From an uncultured Selenomonas sp. (GTDB taxonomy: Bacteria > Bacillota > Negativicutes > Selenomonadales > Selenomonadaceae): a stretch of 64,000 nt of DNA. How positions within the stretch are numbered: position 1 is the stretch's first letter; each line of letters starts with the position of its first letter. Shown one piece after another: positions 5,240 through 46,526 of the stretch. The translations under genes and the position numbers were made by a program. The notes below the pieces were generated by a model. The model made no database searches. It had not been told where the DNA came from and saw nothing but the letters and a program-made list of their open reading frames with translations. The stretch is taken from assembly GCF_963555475.1 (NCBI RefSeq), contig NZ_CAUVVR010000001.1, one strand, 5' to 3'.

Positions 5240-5268
5240 TTGACGCTGACATGGGAAGTATTTATAAT
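5240..5268 (+). promoter_or_regulatory. Near-consensus promoter for hicAB
   Basis: TTGACG (5240-5245), exactly 17-nt spacer, TATAAT (5263-5268). Confidence 0.7.
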
Positions 5269-5290
5269 TTGAAATGAGGGGGCGGTAGGA

Positions 5291-5482
5291 ATGCCGATGA
5301 CACCAAGACAAATGATACGCCTGTTGGAGAAGAATGGCTTTCGCAAAGCGGCATCAAGTTCCGGCTCTCATCAAAAAATGTGGAATCCGCTGACAAGAAC
5401 AACGACAGTTGTTCCGATTCATACTGGCACATTGGGGAAGGGCTTGGAACATAAGATTTTGAAACAAGCGGGTCTGATATAA
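5291..5482 (+). CDS. hicA: HicA-family mRNA interferase toxin
   Basis: 63 aa. MTPRQMIRLLEKNGF...SGSHQKM...VPIHTGTLGKGL is typical of the HicA dsRBD-like fold with a catalytic His. Confidence 0.85.
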   Translation: MPMTPRQMIRLLEKNGFRKAASSSGSHQKMWNPLTRTTTVVPIHTGTLGKGLEHKILKQAGLI

Positions 5483-5506
5483 TGGTGAATGTTGGAGGTG
5501 GTGGCA

Positions 5507-5821
5507 ATGAAGCATTATTATCCTGCGGTCTTCGAGACTGCCAAAGAGGGGGGCTACACGGTGACCGTTCCTGATATTGAGGGGTGCTTCACAGAGGGGC
5601 GAACGCTGGAGCAGGCCATGTGGATGGCACAGGATGCGATTGGTTGTATGTTGGAGGGCACGGATGAAAAGGACTACCCGTGCGCCCGCAGTGTAAAGAG
5701 TGTAGATACATCAGAATTTGCGGATTGTTTTGTGACACTCGTGGAGTTTGATCGGCAAATCTACGAGCAGCGGTGTCGGGATATATCGATTGCGCGTGAG
5801 CAGCTGGCGGCACTGGCATAA
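5507..5821 (+). CDS. hicB: HicB-family antitoxin
   Basis: MKHYYPAVFETAKEGGYTVTVPDIEGCFTEGRTLEQAMWMAQDAIG is a typical HicB N-terminal RNase-H-like fold. ATG 5507 follows GGAGGTGG, and the gene sits directly downstream of hicA. Confidence 0.8.
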   Translation: MKHYYPAVFETAKEGGYTVTVPDIEGCFTEGRTLEQAMWMAQDAIGCMLEGTDEKDYPCARSVKSVDTSEFADCFVTLVEFDRQIYEQRCRDISIAREQLAALA

Positions 5822-5915: not shown

Positions 5916-5937
5916 GTAGGAAGTAAGTCCTTTTTTG
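5916..5937 (+). repeat. attL core (22-bp direct repeat)
   Basis: Exact copy of 46505-46526. Flanking bases differ on both sides, which fixes the repeat length. Confidence 0.75.
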
Positions 5938-5992: not shown

Positions 5993-6027
5993 TTGTCTAC
6001 CGTTTGTCTACGGAATTACTTGTCTAC
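5993..6027 (+). repeat. Three direct TTGTCTAC repeats (candidate integrase arm-type sites, left arm)
   Basis: TTGTCTAC at 5993-6000, 6004-6011 and 6020-6027. The same octamer recurs in the same orientation at 46350-46368 near the other prophage end. Confidence 0.5.
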
Positions 6028-7221
6028 AATCTGCGCGAAGAGGGCGACGGTTGCACGCTGCATCTCTTCAGTATCATGCGCGTAGAGGTTCTGGGTAATG
6101 GAGACATCCGCATGACCGAGCCGGGCAGCAACATCGATAGGGTTTGCCCCCGCCTCGATGAGTTTGGTTGCGTGTGTATGGCGAAAGCTGTGTGAGTTCA
6201 GACCCAAGGAATGCAGCCGCCCATGCAGAGCCATATAGTAGATCGGTAGTCCGAACTTGTCCGTACAGACGAGCGGGCAAAGATGAAAATCTGTCGGCGG
6301 GGTTTCTATCTTCGGCGCGGTATAAAGACCGCGCTCGGCGGTTTCATAGACACGCTGGTAGGCGTTGCCAAAACGAAGCTCGTTCTCTGTTTGCACCCGC
6401 TTCCAATGGGCGAGCTCTGTCATCAGGATTTCGTCCATATAAATCTCGCGCGTGCTTGTTCGGGTCTTCGGATCGGCGAAATAACACTGACGCTTTGCGC
6501 CCACGGTTGCGAGCTGGCGATGGATGTAGATTCTTTGATTCTGCATATCGACATCGTCCCACATAAGCCCGAGTACTTCACCGATGCGTGCGCCCGTGTG
6601 ATATGCGAGAATCAATGGTATGTGGTACTTGTGTCCGCGTGGGAACTTTTCCATGAGCGCATGGAACTGTTCCCCCGTGATGATGGTACGTTCTACAATT
6701 TTCGCAGGTGCTGATCGGGGGACGCGGATATCGGTGCACGGGTTGCTGAGGATGAGCTCTGCCGGATAGACCGCGTATTTCAGTGCAAGGGATAAAATAG
6801 ACTTGGAAAGGGAAAGTGATCTTTTGGAAAGCCCGCGTTCGGCAAGCCGTTTCATCCAGGCATCGACATCGCGGGGGCGGATATCCTGCACGTGGAGATC
6901 GCCGAGGAGCGGGATGATCCGTACGCGGATCACAGAACTATAGTTGTGATAGGTTCCGCGTGTCACATTCGGGCGCATGACATTCTCCAGCCACGCAGCG
7001 AGATAGTCGCGCAGCTTGATCCGCTCGCTGGTGATGCCGATGTTGCCGGACTTCCAGTCTGCGTAGGCGGCGACACCTGCGTCATACGCCTCCTGCTCCG
7101 TCGCATAGCCGCCCTTTTCGATGGCACGACGTTTCCCTGTGGTCGGGTTCTTTCCCGCGTCAAAGGAGTAGGAGTAGGTGCTGCCGCGTCTCCTCGTGCG
7201 GATCGTTGCCTTCTTTGCCAT
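6016..7221 (-). CDS. int: Tyrosine recombinase / phage integrase
   Basis: MAKKATIRTRRRGSTYSYSFDAG... N-terminal arm-binding-type domain. C-terminal catalytic region ...TGARIGEVLGL...HSFRHTHATKLIEAG...LGHADVSITQNLYAH (R-H-R-Y). ATG 7221 is preceded by GGAGG. Confidence 0.93.
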   Translation of the reverse strand: MAKKATIRTRRRGSTYSYSFDAGKNPTTGKRRAIEKGGYATEQEAYDAGVAAYADWKSGNIGITSERIKLRDYLAAWLENVMRPNVTRGTYHNYSSVIRVRIIPLLGDLHVQDIRPRDVDAWMKRLAERGLSKRSLSLSKSILSLALKYAVYPAELILSNPCTDIRVPRSAPAKIVERTIITGEQFHALMEKFPRGHKYHIPLILAYHTGARIGEVLGLMWDDVDMQNQRIYIHRQLATVGAKRQCYFADPKTRTSTREIYMDEILMTELAHWKRVQTENELRFGNAYQRVYETAERGLYTAPKIETPPTDFHLCPLVCTDKFGLPIYYMALHGRLHSLGLNSHSFRHTHATKLIEAGANPIDVAARLGHADVSITQNLYAHDTEEMQRATVALFAQIVDK

Positions 7222-7370
7222 AATAAAACACCTCCGAAGATTCGTTGTGGAATAATCCCCGAAGGTGTGATATACTTTCGCTTGAGAGTGCGGGCATATC
7301 TCCTCGGGGATTGCTTGCTTCACCGTTCATCGTGTTGGTAGCACGGTGGGCGGTTTTTTTTTGTCAAAAG

Positions 7371-43083: not shown

Positions 43084-43149
43084 ACATGAGCGCAGAACAG
43101 CCGTCATAACGTATGGCGGCTTTTTCTGTGCACGGAAAGGAGATTGCTT

Positions 43150-43665
43150 ATGGATTTTATGCCGGTTATTCAGCGTCTTACGGAGGGATGGGGGGCAAAG
43201 GTGGGACTGTCTGTTGCTCTTACCATCGCCTACGAAGATCATGCACAGATCTTCGCGGCATTTGTTGCACTGGTCTGTCTTGACCTTGTGACAAAGTGGC
43301 TTTCGCTCTCACGCCAGCACCTCGTTGATACGGGGGTAGATCAGCCGTCTCTTTGGCAGGCGTTTCGGAACGTGAAGAGAGCCCGTCGTGCGGGCTACAT
43401 CAAGAGCGACATTATGCGCAAGCGTTTTGTGCCGAAAATCCTCACCTACATCGGCGTCGTCTCGGCGGCGTTGATGCTTGACTTTATTCTGGTGAAGGCA
43501 CACGCACCTGCATTTGCCGCAACGCTCGTGATCGGATATCTCTCACTCACAGAATTTATCTCAATCCTCGAGAACATGCAGCACTCAGGGATTGAGGAAG
43601 CGGGGGCACTTGTTGATATGGCGCGCCGTAAAGGCGGCATTGGAAAAGGAGGGGATGACAAATGA
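43150..43665 (+). CDS. Holin (phage_holin_4 / toxin-secretion holin type)
   Basis: Three hydrophobic segments with conserved LDLVTKW...KKR...EFISILENMQHSG. ATG 43150 lies 7 nt after AAAGGAGA. Confidence 0.8.
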   Translation: MDFMPVIQRLTEGWGAKVGLSVALTIAYEDHAQIFAAFVALVCLDLVTKWLSLSRQHLVDTGVDQPSLWQAFRNVKRARRAGYIKSDIMRKRFVPKILTYIGVVSAALMLDFILVKAHAPAFAATLVIGYLSLTEFISILENMQHSGIEEAGALVDMARRKGGIGKGGDDK

Positions 43666-44213
43666 AAGTATTTTTGAATCCCGGGCATGACCTTGTGCAT
43701 GACAGCGGTGCAGTGAGCCCCATCACAGGACTGCGTGAGTGCGACGTAGCGGCGGCGGTCGGGGAACTCGTAAAAGGCTACCTCGAAGCCGTCGGTTATG
43801 AAGTGCGCATGTGGCAGAGCGACAATCTCAACTGGGATAGTGGCTATGCCGATCGGCAGGACTGTTCCGTGTGCGACTGTGCCAATCAGTGGCCAGCGGA
43901 TATCTTTGTGTCCATCCACTGCAACAGCGCGGGCAATACGAGCGCACAGGGCACGGAGACGCTCGTGCACAACATGGGCGGGCGCGCCGAACGTCTTGCT
44001 GACTGCATCCAGCGGCAGATCGTTGACAGCCTCGACACCGTAGATCGCGGCCTGAAAGAGCGTCCCGAGCTTACCGTCCTGCGTGCAACGGATATGCCCG
44101 CCGTATTGGTGGAGCTTGCCTTTATCAGTAATGGGGAGGACGAAGCGCTACTGAGAGACAGACAGGATGATTTCGCACGCGCCATTGCACGCGGGGTGAC
44201 CGATTACGCATAA
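43662..44213 (+). CDS. N-acetylmuramoyl-L-alanine amidase endolysin (Amidase_3)
   Basis: MKVFLNPGHD...DSGAV, VSIHCNS, TETLV, MPAVLVELAFISN. No separate wall-binding domain. Confidence 0.9.
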   Translation: MKVFLNPGHDLVHDSGAVSPITGLRECDVAAAVGELVKGYLEAVGYEVRMWQSDNLNWDSGYADRQDCSVCDCANQWPADIFVSIHCNSAGNTSAQGTETLVHNMGGRAERLADCIQRQIVDSLDTVDRGLKERPELTVLRATDMPAVLVELAFISNGEDEALLRDRQDDFARAIARGVTDYA

Positions 44214-44234: not shown

Positions 44235-44855
44235 ATGCTTGAACGGGTCAAACAGACGGTGAGAGAGCACAAAACAGCCCTGCTGGTGATCCTGTGTCTC
44301 CTGCTTGTCGGCATTGCCTACGCCGTCGGTCGGTACTCCGCACCCGAGCAGACAGCGGCGGAAAAACCTGCCGTCTTGACGCAGAAGGAGACGCAAGAGG
44401 CGCGGGAACTGAAAGACCGACTAGACATATCCACGGCGAACGCCAACGCGCTAGAAAAGCGTATTACGGCGATACAGGCGGGGCAGCGTGCGCCGACAAC
44501 AACATACTACGTCACCGCTCCAACGGTGGAGCGAGCGGCTACAGTGGTAGAGCGGCAGATACGCACGGACGATGTGGCACTACCTATGGCGGCGCGGGAG
44601 AAGAGTGACCGCACCGTCGTCACGCCGATAATTAAGGATAAGGACGGAAAAGACCTGCCGCCCGATCAACAAAAGGTTGACGTGTATAAGATCAACCTGC
44701 GCAAAGACCACCGCATCAAGGCGGGGGCAACGATGATTGACGGCAAGGCACTCATGACTGTAGGATATGAGCAGGGACGCTTTGAGGCTCTTGCTCACTT
44801 CGATGGCTCGCACTACAAGGGCGCGACCGTCACATACAATATCATAGAGTGGTAA
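44235..44855 (+). CDS. N-terminally membrane-anchored protein after the endolysin (lysis-accessory / spanin-position)
   Basis: TM helix ALLVILCLLLVGIAYAV, helical segment, then beta-rich C-terminus ending ...GATVTYNIIEW. Last gene of the lysis operon before the terminator. Confidence 0.55.
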   Translation: MLERVKQTVREHKTALLVILCLLLVGIAYAVGRYSAPEQTAAEKPAVLTQKETQEARELKDRLDISTANANALEKRITAIQAGQRAPTTTYYVTAPTVERAATVVERQIRTDDVALPMAAREKSDRTVVTPIIKDKDGKDLPPDQQKVDVYKINLRKDHRIKAGATMIDGKALMTVGYEQGRFEALAHFDGSHYKGATVTYNIIEW

Positions 44856-44860
44856 TCACC

Positions 44861-44892
44861 GCCCCGGGGCTTCGGCTCTGGGGCTTATTTTT
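44861..44892 (+). terminator. Terminator of the late/lysis operon
   Basis: gccccggggc-ttcg-gctctggggc (10 bp with two G-U pairs), then ttattttt. Confidence 0.7.
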
Positions 44893-44942
44893 GTGCCCCT
44901 AAGCATATAACTATAAAAATAAAAATATATGTATATAAACTA

Positions 44943-44971
44943 TTGACAAACATGTATATAGATGCTATAAT
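44943..44971 (+). promoter_or_regulatory. Perfect consensus sigma-A promoter for the attR-proximal cassette
   Basis: TTGACA (44943-44948), exactly 17 nt, TATAAT (44966-44971), in an AT-rich 130-bp intergenic region. Flanked by the 11-bp inverted repeat tttgtgcccct / aggggcacaaa (44890-44900 / 44990-45000). Confidence 0.7.
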
Positions 44972-45024
44972 ATAATCAAGATAAAGGACAGGGGCACAAA
45001 GCCCAAAAAGAGGAGGAAATCAAA

Positions 45025-45312
45025 ATGGAAATGTACAAGAGCAACGACGGAAAGAAGTTCATCACGCTGCAGGATCCGTACCTCACGGGAGCGGGGCGCG
45101 GATATTACGCCGCATCAGCATTCTGCCCGGACGACACTCCAGACGAGGACGGGTACATCCCCGTCTACGAGCTTCGCTGGGAGATTCTTCCCGAAGAGGA
45201 ATATGACCCCGAAGATAGAGACGAGAGCTGCGCGTGTGACTGGGATGACATCGCAGACTACTCCGTTGTCGGCGACATGTCGGCAGAAGAAAAGGCTGAG
45301 TACGTAGCGTAA
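45025..45312 (+). CDS. Highly acidic 95-aa protein of unknown function
   Basis: RBS AGGAGGA. About 26 Asp/Glu against 7 Lys/Arg by my count (…PDDTPDEDGYIPVYELRWEILPEEEYDPEDRDESCACDWDDIADY…). Confidence 0.6.
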   Translation: MEMYKSNDGKKFITLQDPYLTGAGRGYYAASAFCPDDTPDEDGYIPVYELRWEILPEEEYDPEDRDESCACDWDDIADYSVVGDMSAEEKAEYVA

Positions 45313-45367
45313 CGGCAGAGAGAGAGAGGGGCGAAAGCCCCTCTTGTATCAAAAGGAGGAGATCAAA

Positions 45368-45712
45368 ATGGCAAAAACAAAACAGGTGTATATGAACCCT
45401 GCACTTGCAGGGCTCGAAGCGGACGTGAAGGAGAGCGGCGGGAGTTTCTCCGCGCGACTCGGTGAGATTGTCGAGCGGTATGGTATTCTGCTCGACCTTG
45501 AGGAGCTGCCGGACTTCTCGGAGGCCGAGACGGAGATCCTCAGTGAGGTAATCTGCGGGGCAGGCGTCGACCGCCGCAAGGTGAGAGGACTGCACCTTGA
45601 CGTTCTCGATGCGGCGACGGGGACGATAGCGGAGCGTGAGGAACTCAACCGCAAGGTGGAGGAGATGGGTGCAGGTGCAAGACTCGCTCTCATCGAGCGG
45701 CTCGGACAATGA
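45368..45712 (+). CDS. Hypothetical 114-aa protein
   Basis: ATG 45368 after AGGAGGAGATCAAA, the same RBS context as the preceding gene. The stop overlaps the next start (ATGA). Confidence 0.55.
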   Translation: MAKTKQVYMNPALAGLEADVKESGGSFSARLGEIVERYGILLDLEELPDFSEAETEILSEVICGAGVDRRKVRGLHLDVLDAATGTIAEREELNRKVEEMGAGARLALIERLGQ

Positions 45713-46314
45713 AAAAAGGAACATCGACCATAGCACCCCGCACCTGCCGAGAGTGCGGGGCTACTTTTGAGGGCGGGCCACGCGCGTGGTACTGCCCCGA
45801 CTGCCGTGAGATAAGAAAGAAATTGCAGAAAGCTCGGTATAACGAGCGACGCAAACGGGGCTTGTCCCTCTCGTTGGGAGAGAGCATTGGCCGCTGCGAG
45901 GTGTGCGGCCGTGAATTTGTCTACGTAGCCGCGCGGCAAAGGTACTGCTCTGATTGCGCCCAGGAGGCGTGGAAAGCCTCTGATCGAAGGCAAGGATTAT
46001 TGTGGTATTACGCAAACGATACCGAAGAAAGGAGAAAAGCCAAAGGACAAAGACAAAAAGAGCGACGTAAGGGGCGCAAGGGAAAACAAAGAGATTCCGA
46101 TTTGTTGGGGGAGTGGAAATCTCTAACGAAAAAATGGGCGGTAAAGGACTGCGTGGTATGTGGTAAAGAAATCTCAAATAGAAGACGGCATTATTGCTCT
46201 GAAAAATGCCATATGATTGGGTCTGCGTATGCCACGGCATTGTCGCACTATCTCGCAGGAGATATTAGATCATGCCCCACGTGGGAAGAGTGGGTAGAAC
46301 AACATAAGAAATAG
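45709..46314 (+). CDS. Triple zinc-ribbon protein with basic linker
   Basis: Three CxxC...CxxC modules: CRECGATFEGGPRAWYCPDC, CEVCGREFVYVAARQRYCSDC and CVVCGKEISNRRRHYCSEKC. A K/R-rich stretch RRKAKGQRQKERRKGRKGKQR lies between modules 2 and 3. Confidence 0.6.
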   Translation: MKKGTSTIAPRTCRECGATFEGGPRAWYCPDCREIRKKLQKARYNERRKRGLSLSLGESIGRCEVCGREFVYVAARQRYCSDCAQEAWKASDRRQGLLWYYANDTEERRKAKGQRQKERRKGRKGKQRDSDLLGEWKSLTKKWAVKDCVVCGKEISNRRRHYCSEKCHMIGSAYATALSHYLAGDIRSCPTWEEWVEQHKK

Positions 46315-46351
46315 AGGGGACAGCGTATCAATCGCCGTCCCCTCTGTTTTT
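46313..46351 (+). terminator. Terminator after the cassette
   Basis: agaggggacagcg / cgccgtcccctct (13 bp, one mismatch), 7-nt loop, gttttt. Confidence 0.7.
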
Positions 46352-46377
46352 GTCTACAATTTGTCTACCATGCCTAC
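46350..46377 (+). repeat. TTGTCTAC direct repeats (candidate integrase arm-type sites, right arm)
   Basis: TTGTCTAC at 46350-46357 and 46361-46368, plus a degenerate TGCCTAC at 46371-46377. Same octamer and orientation as 5993-6027. Confidence 0.5.
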
Positions 46378-46504: not shown

Positions 46505-46526
46505 GTAGGAAGTAAGTCCTTTTTTG
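46505..46526 (+). repeat. attR core (22-bp direct repeat)
   Basis: Identical to 5916-5937. Confidence 0.75.

Follow-up and report, generated by a model that had tools for sequence, protein, structure and literature searches.

A three-gene cassette ends a Selenomonas prophage

The cassette described here lies at the right end of a prophage in a 64,000-nucleotide stretch of an uncultured Selenomonas sp. (contig NZ_CAUVVR010000001.1), referred to as the window. The prophage occupies about 40.6 kb of the window and ends in a 22-bp direct repeat (GTAGGAAGTAAGTCCTTTTTTG) at positions 5916-5937 and 46505-46526. The three genes form the final phage unit, between the lysis genes and the attR/attP arm, and the features from the upstream terminator to the attR core are given on the plus strand. 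We propose with moderate confidence that the cassette is an autorepressed anti-defence operon of the anti-CRISPR/anti-CRISPR-associated (acr-aca; CRISPR, clustered regularly interspaced short palindromic repeats) type and the last unit of a temperate Selenomonas phage.

The unit begins with a sigma-70 consensus promoter (44943..44971), consisting of TTGACA (44943-44948), a 17-nt spacer and TATAAT (44966-44971) with a TG extended -10. It matches the consensus at 12 of 12 positions and is the sole exact match in the 64-kb window, just as the first-pass annotation of this DNA had stated. With at most one mismatch allowed, 2 promoters were found against 0.09 expected by chance, and the hexamers are kept in related phage loci. 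Three genes follow on the same strand. Gene 1 (45025..45312) encodes a protein of 95 amino acids (aa) with an isoelectric point (pI) of 4.05, and the earlier approximate count of 26 Asp/Glu and 7 Lys/Arg residues is exact. Gene 2 (45368..45712) encodes a 114-aa protein (pI 4.7; phrog_14350) with an N-terminal segment resembling a ribbon-helix-helix (RHH) fold and a helical C-terminal domain. Gene 3 (45709..46314) encodes a basic 201-aa protein (pI 9.7) with three zinc-ribbon-plus-helix units. Genes 1 and 2 have the ribosome-binding context AGGAGGAnATCAAAATGG in common, and gene 3 overlaps gene 2 through an ATGA that is also conserved in relatives; both observations had been made before. A bidirectional intrinsic terminator (46313..46351) closes the unit with a 13-pair stem (46313-46345) and a T run (-28.7 kcal/mol, z = -8.9). 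The cassette was originally called autonomous, adjacent to att and free of any virion or lysis role, and it is: its own signals set it between phage modules in the manner of a moron.

Gene 2 belongs with the anti-CRISPR protein AcrIE10

None of the three proteins had been recognised at first, and for gene 2 this has changed. By alignment it is a full-length homologue of AcrIE10 and a new member of that known family. A profile of gene 2 homologues found the AcrIE10 entries in the PDB (E = 7e-6, residues 15-113), and hhalign aligned gene 2 with AcrIE10 at 90.9% probability (E = 1.2e-6, 107 columns, 27% identity). An exhaustive hidden Markov model search from a Selenomonas-only seed collected 89 representative clusters, including proteins 42-60% identical to AcrIE10. 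Four intermediates (P0241, P0265, P0300 and P0315) bridge the two proteins, and P0241, for instance, reaches E = 5.5e-24 with the gene 2 profile and 7e-11 with AcrIE10. Three AcrIE10 structures also ranked top among 350,542 PDB chains when the AlphaFold2 (AF2) model of gene 2 was searched with Foldseek (TM score 0.50, probability 0.93-0.99), a result taken as a ranking only, the model being poor (predicted local distance difference test, pLDDT, 57).

AcrIE10 was discovered on Klebsiella plasmids as a Cas7-binding anti-CRISPR, in which E78 of the C-terminal domain is critical for Cas7 binding and Q56, N63, S65, E68, Y74 and D83 also take part; the same 2024 paper already noted family members in Firmicutes and prophages (PMC11317147). 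The protein is a bifunctional Acr-Aca, whose N-terminal RHH binds a repeat over the -35/-10 region of the acrIE9.2-acrIE10 promoter. Its knockout derepresses the operon about 80-fold, and repression is relieved when Cas7 is bound to the C-terminal domain (PMC13530269). If gene 2 autorepresses in the same way, simple constitutive expression of the cassette in the lysogen would be unlikely.

The alignment of gene 2 with AcrIE10 runs through the RHH and takes in its N-P anchor as well as the S/T that opens helix 2. The C-terminal helical domain is highly conserved, and it probably binds a protein partner, either a subunit of a host defence system, as in AcrIE10, or gene 3. At the Cas7 contacts, E78 and E68 of AcrIE10 align with D78 and D68 of gene 2, and G64 with G64. 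A Selenomonas type I-F1 Cascade has been described in the literature; the 64-kb window contains no CRISPR array.

Gene 2 is also found without gene 3, on the Klebsiella plasmids and in Streptococcus prophage 315.1 (L007, 1500-2288). In the latter, the homologue SpyM3_0732 stands after the lysin near attR, preceded by an extended -10 promoter, untranslated region (UTR) hairpins and a 79-aa open reading frame (ORF), SpyM3_0733; no zinc-ribbon gene accompanies it. The layout of the cassette thus recurs in a well-studied pathogen, where it would be easy to test.

Candidate operator boxes change together with gene 2

An exact 9-nt direct repeat (ATGTATATA) occurs twice in the promoter, 23 bp apart. 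Box 1 (44929..44937) is just upstream of the -35 hexamer and box 2 (44952..44960) is within the -35/-10 spacer, and each is a candidate operator half for gene 2. Every locus with a gene 2 of the window type carries the two ATGTA(T/C)AT boxes. Both are missing from loci in which gene 2 is absent and gene 1 is combined with another RHH gene, though the sequence flanking the spacer is identical there.

The boxes vary in step with the protein. In a Selenomonas noxia prophage (L037), three TACGTAAA boxes take the place of ATGTATATA, spaced exactly 22 bp apart with the last inside the spacer, and these are the only copies in 10.9 kb. The gene 2 of this prophage is 28% identical to that of the window over residues 1-25, compared with 82% and 69% in the other two segments. 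Residues 1-25 comprise the predicted strand and first helix, in which KQVYMN is replaced by KTISMG. In Paenibacillus larvae phages, whose gene 2 homologues read KQIWMN, 3-4 tandem 12-bp ATAAGT(G/A)TTG repeats cover the -35 hexamer. An operator-repressor pair predicts that all boxes change jointly with the DNA-reading end of the protein, and we infer from this that gene 2 may control the cassette promoter via the boxes.

The first-pass annotation had drawn attention to a different element, an 11-bp perfect inverted repeat (TTTGTGCCCCT at 44890-44900 and AGGGGCACAAA at 44990-45000) that brackets the promoter. The repeat is real, but a role in control is unlikely, as it is not conserved in related loci. 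It was rejected as an operator since it is imperfect or absent in most relatives, without compensating changes. On the left it consists of the T-tail of the upstream terminator, and on the right of a small 5'-UTR hairpin. From these comparisons the inverted repeat is probably incidental, and the operator is better sought in the conserved ATGTATATA boxes.

The leader and the first intergenic region each contain a hairpin. The small 5'-UTR hairpin (GGGC-ACAAA-GCCC, 44992..45004; -7.2 kcal/mol, z = -2.4) keeps its position in relatives, while its loop and sequence differ. The hairpin between genes 1 and 2 (AGAGGGGC-GAAA-GCCCCTCT, 45324..45345; -20 kcal/mol, z = -4.1) has no proper T run behind it and may be an attenuator that lowers read-through or a stabiliser of the cargo mRNA.

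The position of gene 1 is an exchangeable slot

Twenty-odd related loci were available from metagenomes, IMG/VR and two Selenomonas genomes. Co-occurrence was judged from the IMG/VR and metagenome contigs because a gene 2 alignment scan of genome contigs matched one locus only, in Selenomonas infelix. The related loci have in common a 206-aa gene upstream of the cassette, some 170 bp of nearly identical promoter DNA, gene 2, and a zinc-ribbon gene that likewise overlaps gene 2 through ATGA. Between promoter and gene 2 they carry a member of the gene 1 family (95-121 aa) or a 90-, 125-, 76- or 65-aa protein, sometimes two of these. The slot with the same promoter and gene 2 holds at least five unrelated small proteins in relatives. 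By composition most slot proteins are strongly acidic, and they have no matches in Pfam, PHROGs, PADLOC, NCBIfam or the PDB.

Homologues of gene 1 are few and all of Selenomonas type. No family or PDB match was obtained for gene 1 in Pfam, PHROGs, PADLOC, NCBIfam or a PDB profile search, and PDB sequence searches with the 90-aa cargo protein and a 141-aa cargo protein of Paenibacillus phages were likewise empty. A comparison with DNA mimics, which had been suggested for gene 1, revealed acidic composition as the only feature in common with Ocr and ArdA; Pfam, PHROG and PDB sequence searches gave no match. The unrelated cargo genes share one start junction, a hairpin followed by GGAGGAAATCAAAATG, seen in the window at 45011-45027 and 45354-45370 and in related loci. 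This suggests that cargo is replaced via recombination at short conserved boundaries.

The three genes do not form a fixed set: there are loci with gene 1 but neither of the others, loci with genes 2 and 3 but no gene 1, and loci with gene 2 but no gene 3. Gene 1 homologues of 62-82% identity are found in other Selenomonas-type phages that lack genes 2 and 3. In two such loci (L040 and L043), the homologue stands behind a promoter with the same flanks and another spacer, and the genes after it are a single RHH gene of 61 aa (Pfam TacA1-like at 25.1 bits, cut-off 21; also Arc and RHH_1) and one for a serine integrase. Because gene 1 homologues also pair with this 61-aa gene, gene 1 is mobile cargo with two different RHH regulators. 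Two features by which acr-aca loci are known are present: a strong promoter followed by variable small ORFs and a conserved DNA-binding regulator gene, and the same cargo gene combined with differing regulators. Gene 1 is a candidate inhibitor of host defence in this setting. The idea that gene 1 is a toxin and gene 2 its antitoxin was considered and rejected, in view of the extreme acidity of gene 1 and of the at least five unrelated proteins that precede the same gene 2.

In the relatives without gene 2 (L040, 2195-2385; also L042 and L043), the promoter of gene 1 is closely preceded by another perfect one, TTGACAAAATAGACACATCTGATTATAAT. The DNA behind it is non-coding for about 150 nt, up to a terminator of its own, and possibly specifies a small RNA of the phage; the unit in L040 matched no credible Rfam family.

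The exchange of contents among related phages, together with the cassette's own promoter and terminator beside att, could also be expected of a lysogen-expressed moron that aids the host by superinfection exclusion, defence against other phages or lysogenic conversion, with constitutive transcription from the prophage. The homologues in Paenibacillus phages, which are on the same strand as a CI-like repressor gene, agree with this as well. The cargo proteins, however, are small (65-141 aa), mostly acidic and without an enzymatic domain, and so resemble inhibitors rather than defence enzymes; PADLOC returned no matches, and AcrIE10, the sole characterised relative, is an anti-defence protein and an autorepressor. 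We consider such a host-aiding role unlikely. The first-pass annotation had left defence, anti-defence and lysogenic conversion side by side, and of these it is anti-defence that gains support from the homology of gene 2 to AcrIE10.

Gene 3 is a conserved zinc-ribbon partner

The AF2 model of gene 3 (pLDDT 84) consists of three units, each a zinc knuckle and beta-hairpin followed by a long Arg/Lys-rich helix. All three ribbons of the first-pass annotation are present, with a correction to their spacing: the third is CxxC-x11-CxxxC and does not follow the CxxC-x(11-13)-CxxC pattern given for all of them. Foldseek found no PDB fold match to the model (best E = 0.6). Against BFVD, the matches were solely homologues from phages, themselves uncharacterised, and zinc modules from HNH homing endonucleases, in agreement with a match to the non-nuclease part of phrog_1271 (E = 1e-10). 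In Pfam there were sub-threshold zinc-ribbon matches alone (DZR_2, DUF2116 and YacG), below every curated cut-off, and PADLOC and NCBIfam searches of genes 1, 2 and 3 gave nothing useful. Gene 3 is probably DNA-binding.

The N-terminal double ribbon of gene 3 has the near-invariant sequence RTCRECGxxFxGGPRAWYCPxCR from Negativicutes to Bacilli and Clostridia, and at the sequence level this motif defines gene 3 as a family of its own. The C-terminal part of the family is variable, with 2-4 ribbons. A gene of this type stands directly behind a small DNA-binding gene in each distinct context examined, except in Blautia phage Montmirail, where the double ribbon occurs with an AP2-like region that was read by eye. 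The two genes often have a stop/start overlap, and the upstream one is itself behind small unknown ORFs, usually beside lysis genes. In phages of Selenomonas and Paenibacillus and in loci L023-L026 of IMG/VR, this partner is gene 2 with its RHH. In L030-L036 and Flavonifractor phage Cormatin, it is an HTH_3 (helix-turn-helix, HTH) protein; a PDB search with one HTH partner of a gene 3-like protein gave a generic match only. Elsewhere, fusions join the double ribbon to an XRE-type HTH (P0057 and P0069) or to AP2 and sigma-region-4 domains (P0042 and P0046).

In three loci (L011, L014 and L015; 4342-5064), the place of gene 3 is taken by a zinc-ribbon protein of 240 aa with just 25% identity to it, which keeps the ATGA overlap and follows a gene 2 of 76-79% identity. 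Because so divergent a protein replaces gene 3 behind a similar gene 2, the downstream partner is exchanged as a module. The contexts of gene 3 fit a DNA-binding co-regulator and an effector that is sometimes joined to a regulator equally well. Several Acr-Aca fusions, in which an effector is joined to a regulator, are listed in PMC13530269; the literature was also searched for acr-aca loci with zinc-ribbon proteins, and none was found.

The pairing of genes 2 and 3 raises the most serious rival to an anti-defence operon, namely that they form a type II toxin-antitoxin or abortive-infection pair in which gene 2 would be the antitoxin, acidic, of RHH type and autoregulating at the promoter, gene 3 would be the toxin, a basic zinc-ribbon protein that binds nucleic acid, and gene 1 would be unrelated cargo. 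Gene order, the conserved ATGA overlap and the opposite pI values (4.7 and 9.7) are reminiscent of classical RHH antitoxin/toxin modules, and AcrIE10 is itself antitoxin-like, with an RHH and a partner-binding C-terminal domain whose occupancy tunes DNA binding. The properties of gene 3 point the other way. It has zinc-ribbon matches only, with no toxin family, catalytic core or PADLOC match, and both its resemblance to DNA-binding modules of homing endonucleases and the fusion of its double ribbon to HTH, AP2 or sigma-region-4 domains in relatives are atypical of toxins. The pair is also separable, as gene 2 occurs alone in Streptococcus 315.1 and on Klebsiella plasmids, genes like gene 3 also pair with unrelated HTH proteins, and a 25%-identical zinc-ribbon protein can replace gene 3 behind a gene 2 of 76-79% identity. 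With variable cargo upstream in addition, a toxin-antitoxin pair seems quite improbable to us.

A proposed autorepressed anti-defence operon

In the operon that we propose, the consensus host-type promoter would fire upon DNA entry and give a burst of the gene 1, 2 and 3 products from a transcript that ends at the cassette's own terminator. Gene 1, as the exchangeable cargo, would inhibit host defence, and the hairpin behind it may lower read-through or stabilise the cargo message. Dimers of gene 2 would then fill the boxes and shut the promoter after the initial burst, leaving low, self-limited expression in the lysogen. Through its C-terminal domain, gene 2 may bind gene 3, or it may sense or inhibit a protein of the host, and gene 3, translationally coupled to gene 2, would act as a co-regulator or a conserved effector. 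A post-lysis position of the unit is found repeatedly, in phages of Selenomonas, Paenibacillus, Streptococcus and Clostridia.

Several points weigh against this proposal. The anti-defence role of all three proteins is something we infer from sequence, and neither gene 1 nor the other cargo proteins have detectable similarity to known inhibitors. The RHH fold of gene 2 is likewise read from the alignment: its AF2 monomer is poor (pLDDT 57), with helices at 11-22 and 27-38 and no strand formed, and the Pfam RHH models miss gene 2, as they also miss AcrIE10 itself. Four Cas7 contacts of AcrIE10 are lost in gene 2 (Q56 to E, N63 to C, S65 to A and Y74 to G), and because only some contact residues are kept, a CRISPR target of gene 2 is not established. 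Gene 3 has no described counterpart in known acr operons. Finally, the pair in Paenibacillus phages is downstream of a CI-like gene in the same orientation, which fits expression in the lysogen too.

A broader claim can be put forward tentatively and is less likely than the operon itself. An AcrIE10-like RHH gene together with an RTCRECG...PRAWYCPxCR zinc-ribbon gene might mark a widespread, undescribed class of post-lysis anti-defence operons in phages of Negativicutes, Bacilli and Clostridia, whose cargo, at least eight unrelated families, would be new immunity inhibitors; the zinc-ribbon protein would then be a new operon component, serving as a co-repressor with the RHH or HTH protein or as a broad inhibitor of a core host function. 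The families counted are gene 1 and the 90-, 125/141-, 76-, 65-, 83-, 87- and 91-aa proteins.

Prophage context of the cassette

At its left end, the prophage carries a tyrosine integrase with an arm-DNA-binding domain (6016-7323, minus strand) and a LexA-like CI repressor. The right end has a holin (43144-43665), an amidase (43662-44213) and the 206-aa gene (44235-44855), after which the intrinsic terminator of the late/lysis operon (44861..44889) forms a 10-pair stem (44861-44884) and a T run (-21.5 kcal/mol) that are kept in related loci. The attR core (46505..46526), the right copy of the 22-bp repeat, lies beyond the cassette, and host DNA with mraZ-rsmH-ftsL-murE follows to the right of the prophage. 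The nearest proteins bear Selenomonas names, and related prophages are found in S. infelix and S. noxia.

The 206-aa gene belongs to phrog_10797, a family of unknown function (E = 4e-67), and is kept in all related Selenomonas-type phages. A weak match to Rz-like spanins (E = 0.08) was noted, and the gene may encode a spanin-type lysis component, as needed by a phage of a diderm Firmicute; PADLOC and NCBIfam yielded nothing useful for it. In some relatives an extra 218-aa gene is inserted between the 206-aa gene and the cassette promoter (L008, 2842-3498; L011, 2799-3455), with a weak helix-hairpin-helix signal and no family match. Just outside attL is a hicA/hicB toxin-antitoxin pair (5240-5821; HicA_toxin E = 7e-17, HicB-like E = 1e-16), preceded by TTGACG-17-TATAAT (5240-5268), which has one mismatch and is the sole other near-consensus promoter of the window.

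Directly after the cassette terminator, two TTGTCTAC repeats (46350..46368) probably mark the beginning of the attP arm. The window contains 6 copies of TTGTCTAC compared with 0.92 expected, of which three adjoin the integrase gene (5993-6027) and two are those at 46350-46368. They are probably the arm-type sites of the arm-domain tyrosine integrase, and the sixth copy, inside gene 3 at 45917, is probably due to chance.

Since the cassette abuts these arm-type sites, and in the circular phage would adjoin attP and int, its RHH and zinc-ribbon proteins, both probably DNA-binding, might instead control the life cycle as a recombination-directionality or lysis-lysogeny accessory. The candidate boxes, however, are in the cassette's own promoter and not in the att arms. 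Homologous modules stand beside both tyrosine and serine integrases and, in Cormatin, beside replication/partition genes, and gene 2 homologues are found on conjugative plasmids, where their known role is in anti-CRISPR. Life-cycle control is in our estimate very unlikely, and neither it nor a host-aiding moron accounts for the cargo pattern or the kinship with AcrIE10.

Novelty and meaning

AcrIE10 and RHH-based regulation of acr genes are already published. What appears to be new is the operon variant, with its Negativicute prophage setting, direct-repeat boxes and conserved zinc-ribbon partner, along with the unrelated cargo families and the joint change of box and protein. Few anti-defence proteins are known from phages of oral and gut Firmicutes, and "guilt by association" searches that use HTH regulators miss them. 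If the proposed operon is correct, an AcrIE10-type RHH gene followed by a zinc-ribbon gene would be a search anchor for new anti-defence proteins in these phages, and the AcrIE10 family would extend from enterobacterial plasmids to temperate phages of diderm Firmicutes. The boxes would be a natural case of operator and RHH specificity shifting jointly (ATGTATATA versus TACGTAAA), and a conserved zinc-ribbon family of these operons would be offered for study.

Comparison with known systems

The gene 3 units are CxxC...(Y/F)CxxC knuckles with a helix, like the zinc-ribbon/treble-clef modules of YacG, DUF2116, DZR_2 and the HNH homing endonucleases of phrog_1271, and unlike phage HNH homing endonucleases, gene 3 has no HNH nuclease domain. 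Genes 2 and 3 are arranged like type II modules with RHH antitoxins (ParD/ParE and RelB/RelE), in which an acidic RHH-type gene is followed by a basic gene with a stop/start overlap and autoregulation is expected. The differences from these modules are that gene 3 lacks both toxin-family membership and a catalytic motif, that in other loci it occurs joined to DNA-binding domains, that the pair is separable, and that the cargo upstream is variable.

Classical acr-aca operons are controlled by the HTH repressors Aca1 and Aca2, and the AcrIIA1 locus lies downstream of the lysin in Listeria prophages. As in such operons generally and as discussed in PMC13530269, a strong promoter here precedes variable, small and often acidic genes and then a conserved DNA-binding gene, here a putative negative-feedback regulator, and cargo is shuffled among loci with differing regulators. 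In this case the regulator is RHH and not HTH, and an additional conserved zinc-ribbon gene is present.

The closest counterpart is the acrIE9.2-acrIE10 operon of Klebsiella pneumoniae IncF plasmids (PDB 8ji9, 9m71 and 9m7t). Gene 2 is a full-length homologue of its regulator (114 versus 116 aa), and in both operons a promoter leads to a small upstream gene (in Klebsiella a 90-aa acr) and then the RHH regulator, with repeats that overlap the -35/-10 region. The operons differ in their setting, which is a Negativicutes prophage here and the leading region of an enterobacterial plasmid in Klebsiella, and in their cargo, as gene 1 is unrelated to AcrIE9.2. Most Cas7-contact residues are not kept in gene 2. 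The candidate operator in Selenomonas consists of direct 9-bp boxes 23 bp apart, whereas that of Klebsiella is an inverted repeat with a 2-bp spacer, and the gene that follows the regulator is the coupled zinc-ribbon gene in Selenomonas and an unrelated 105-aa ORF in Klebsiella.

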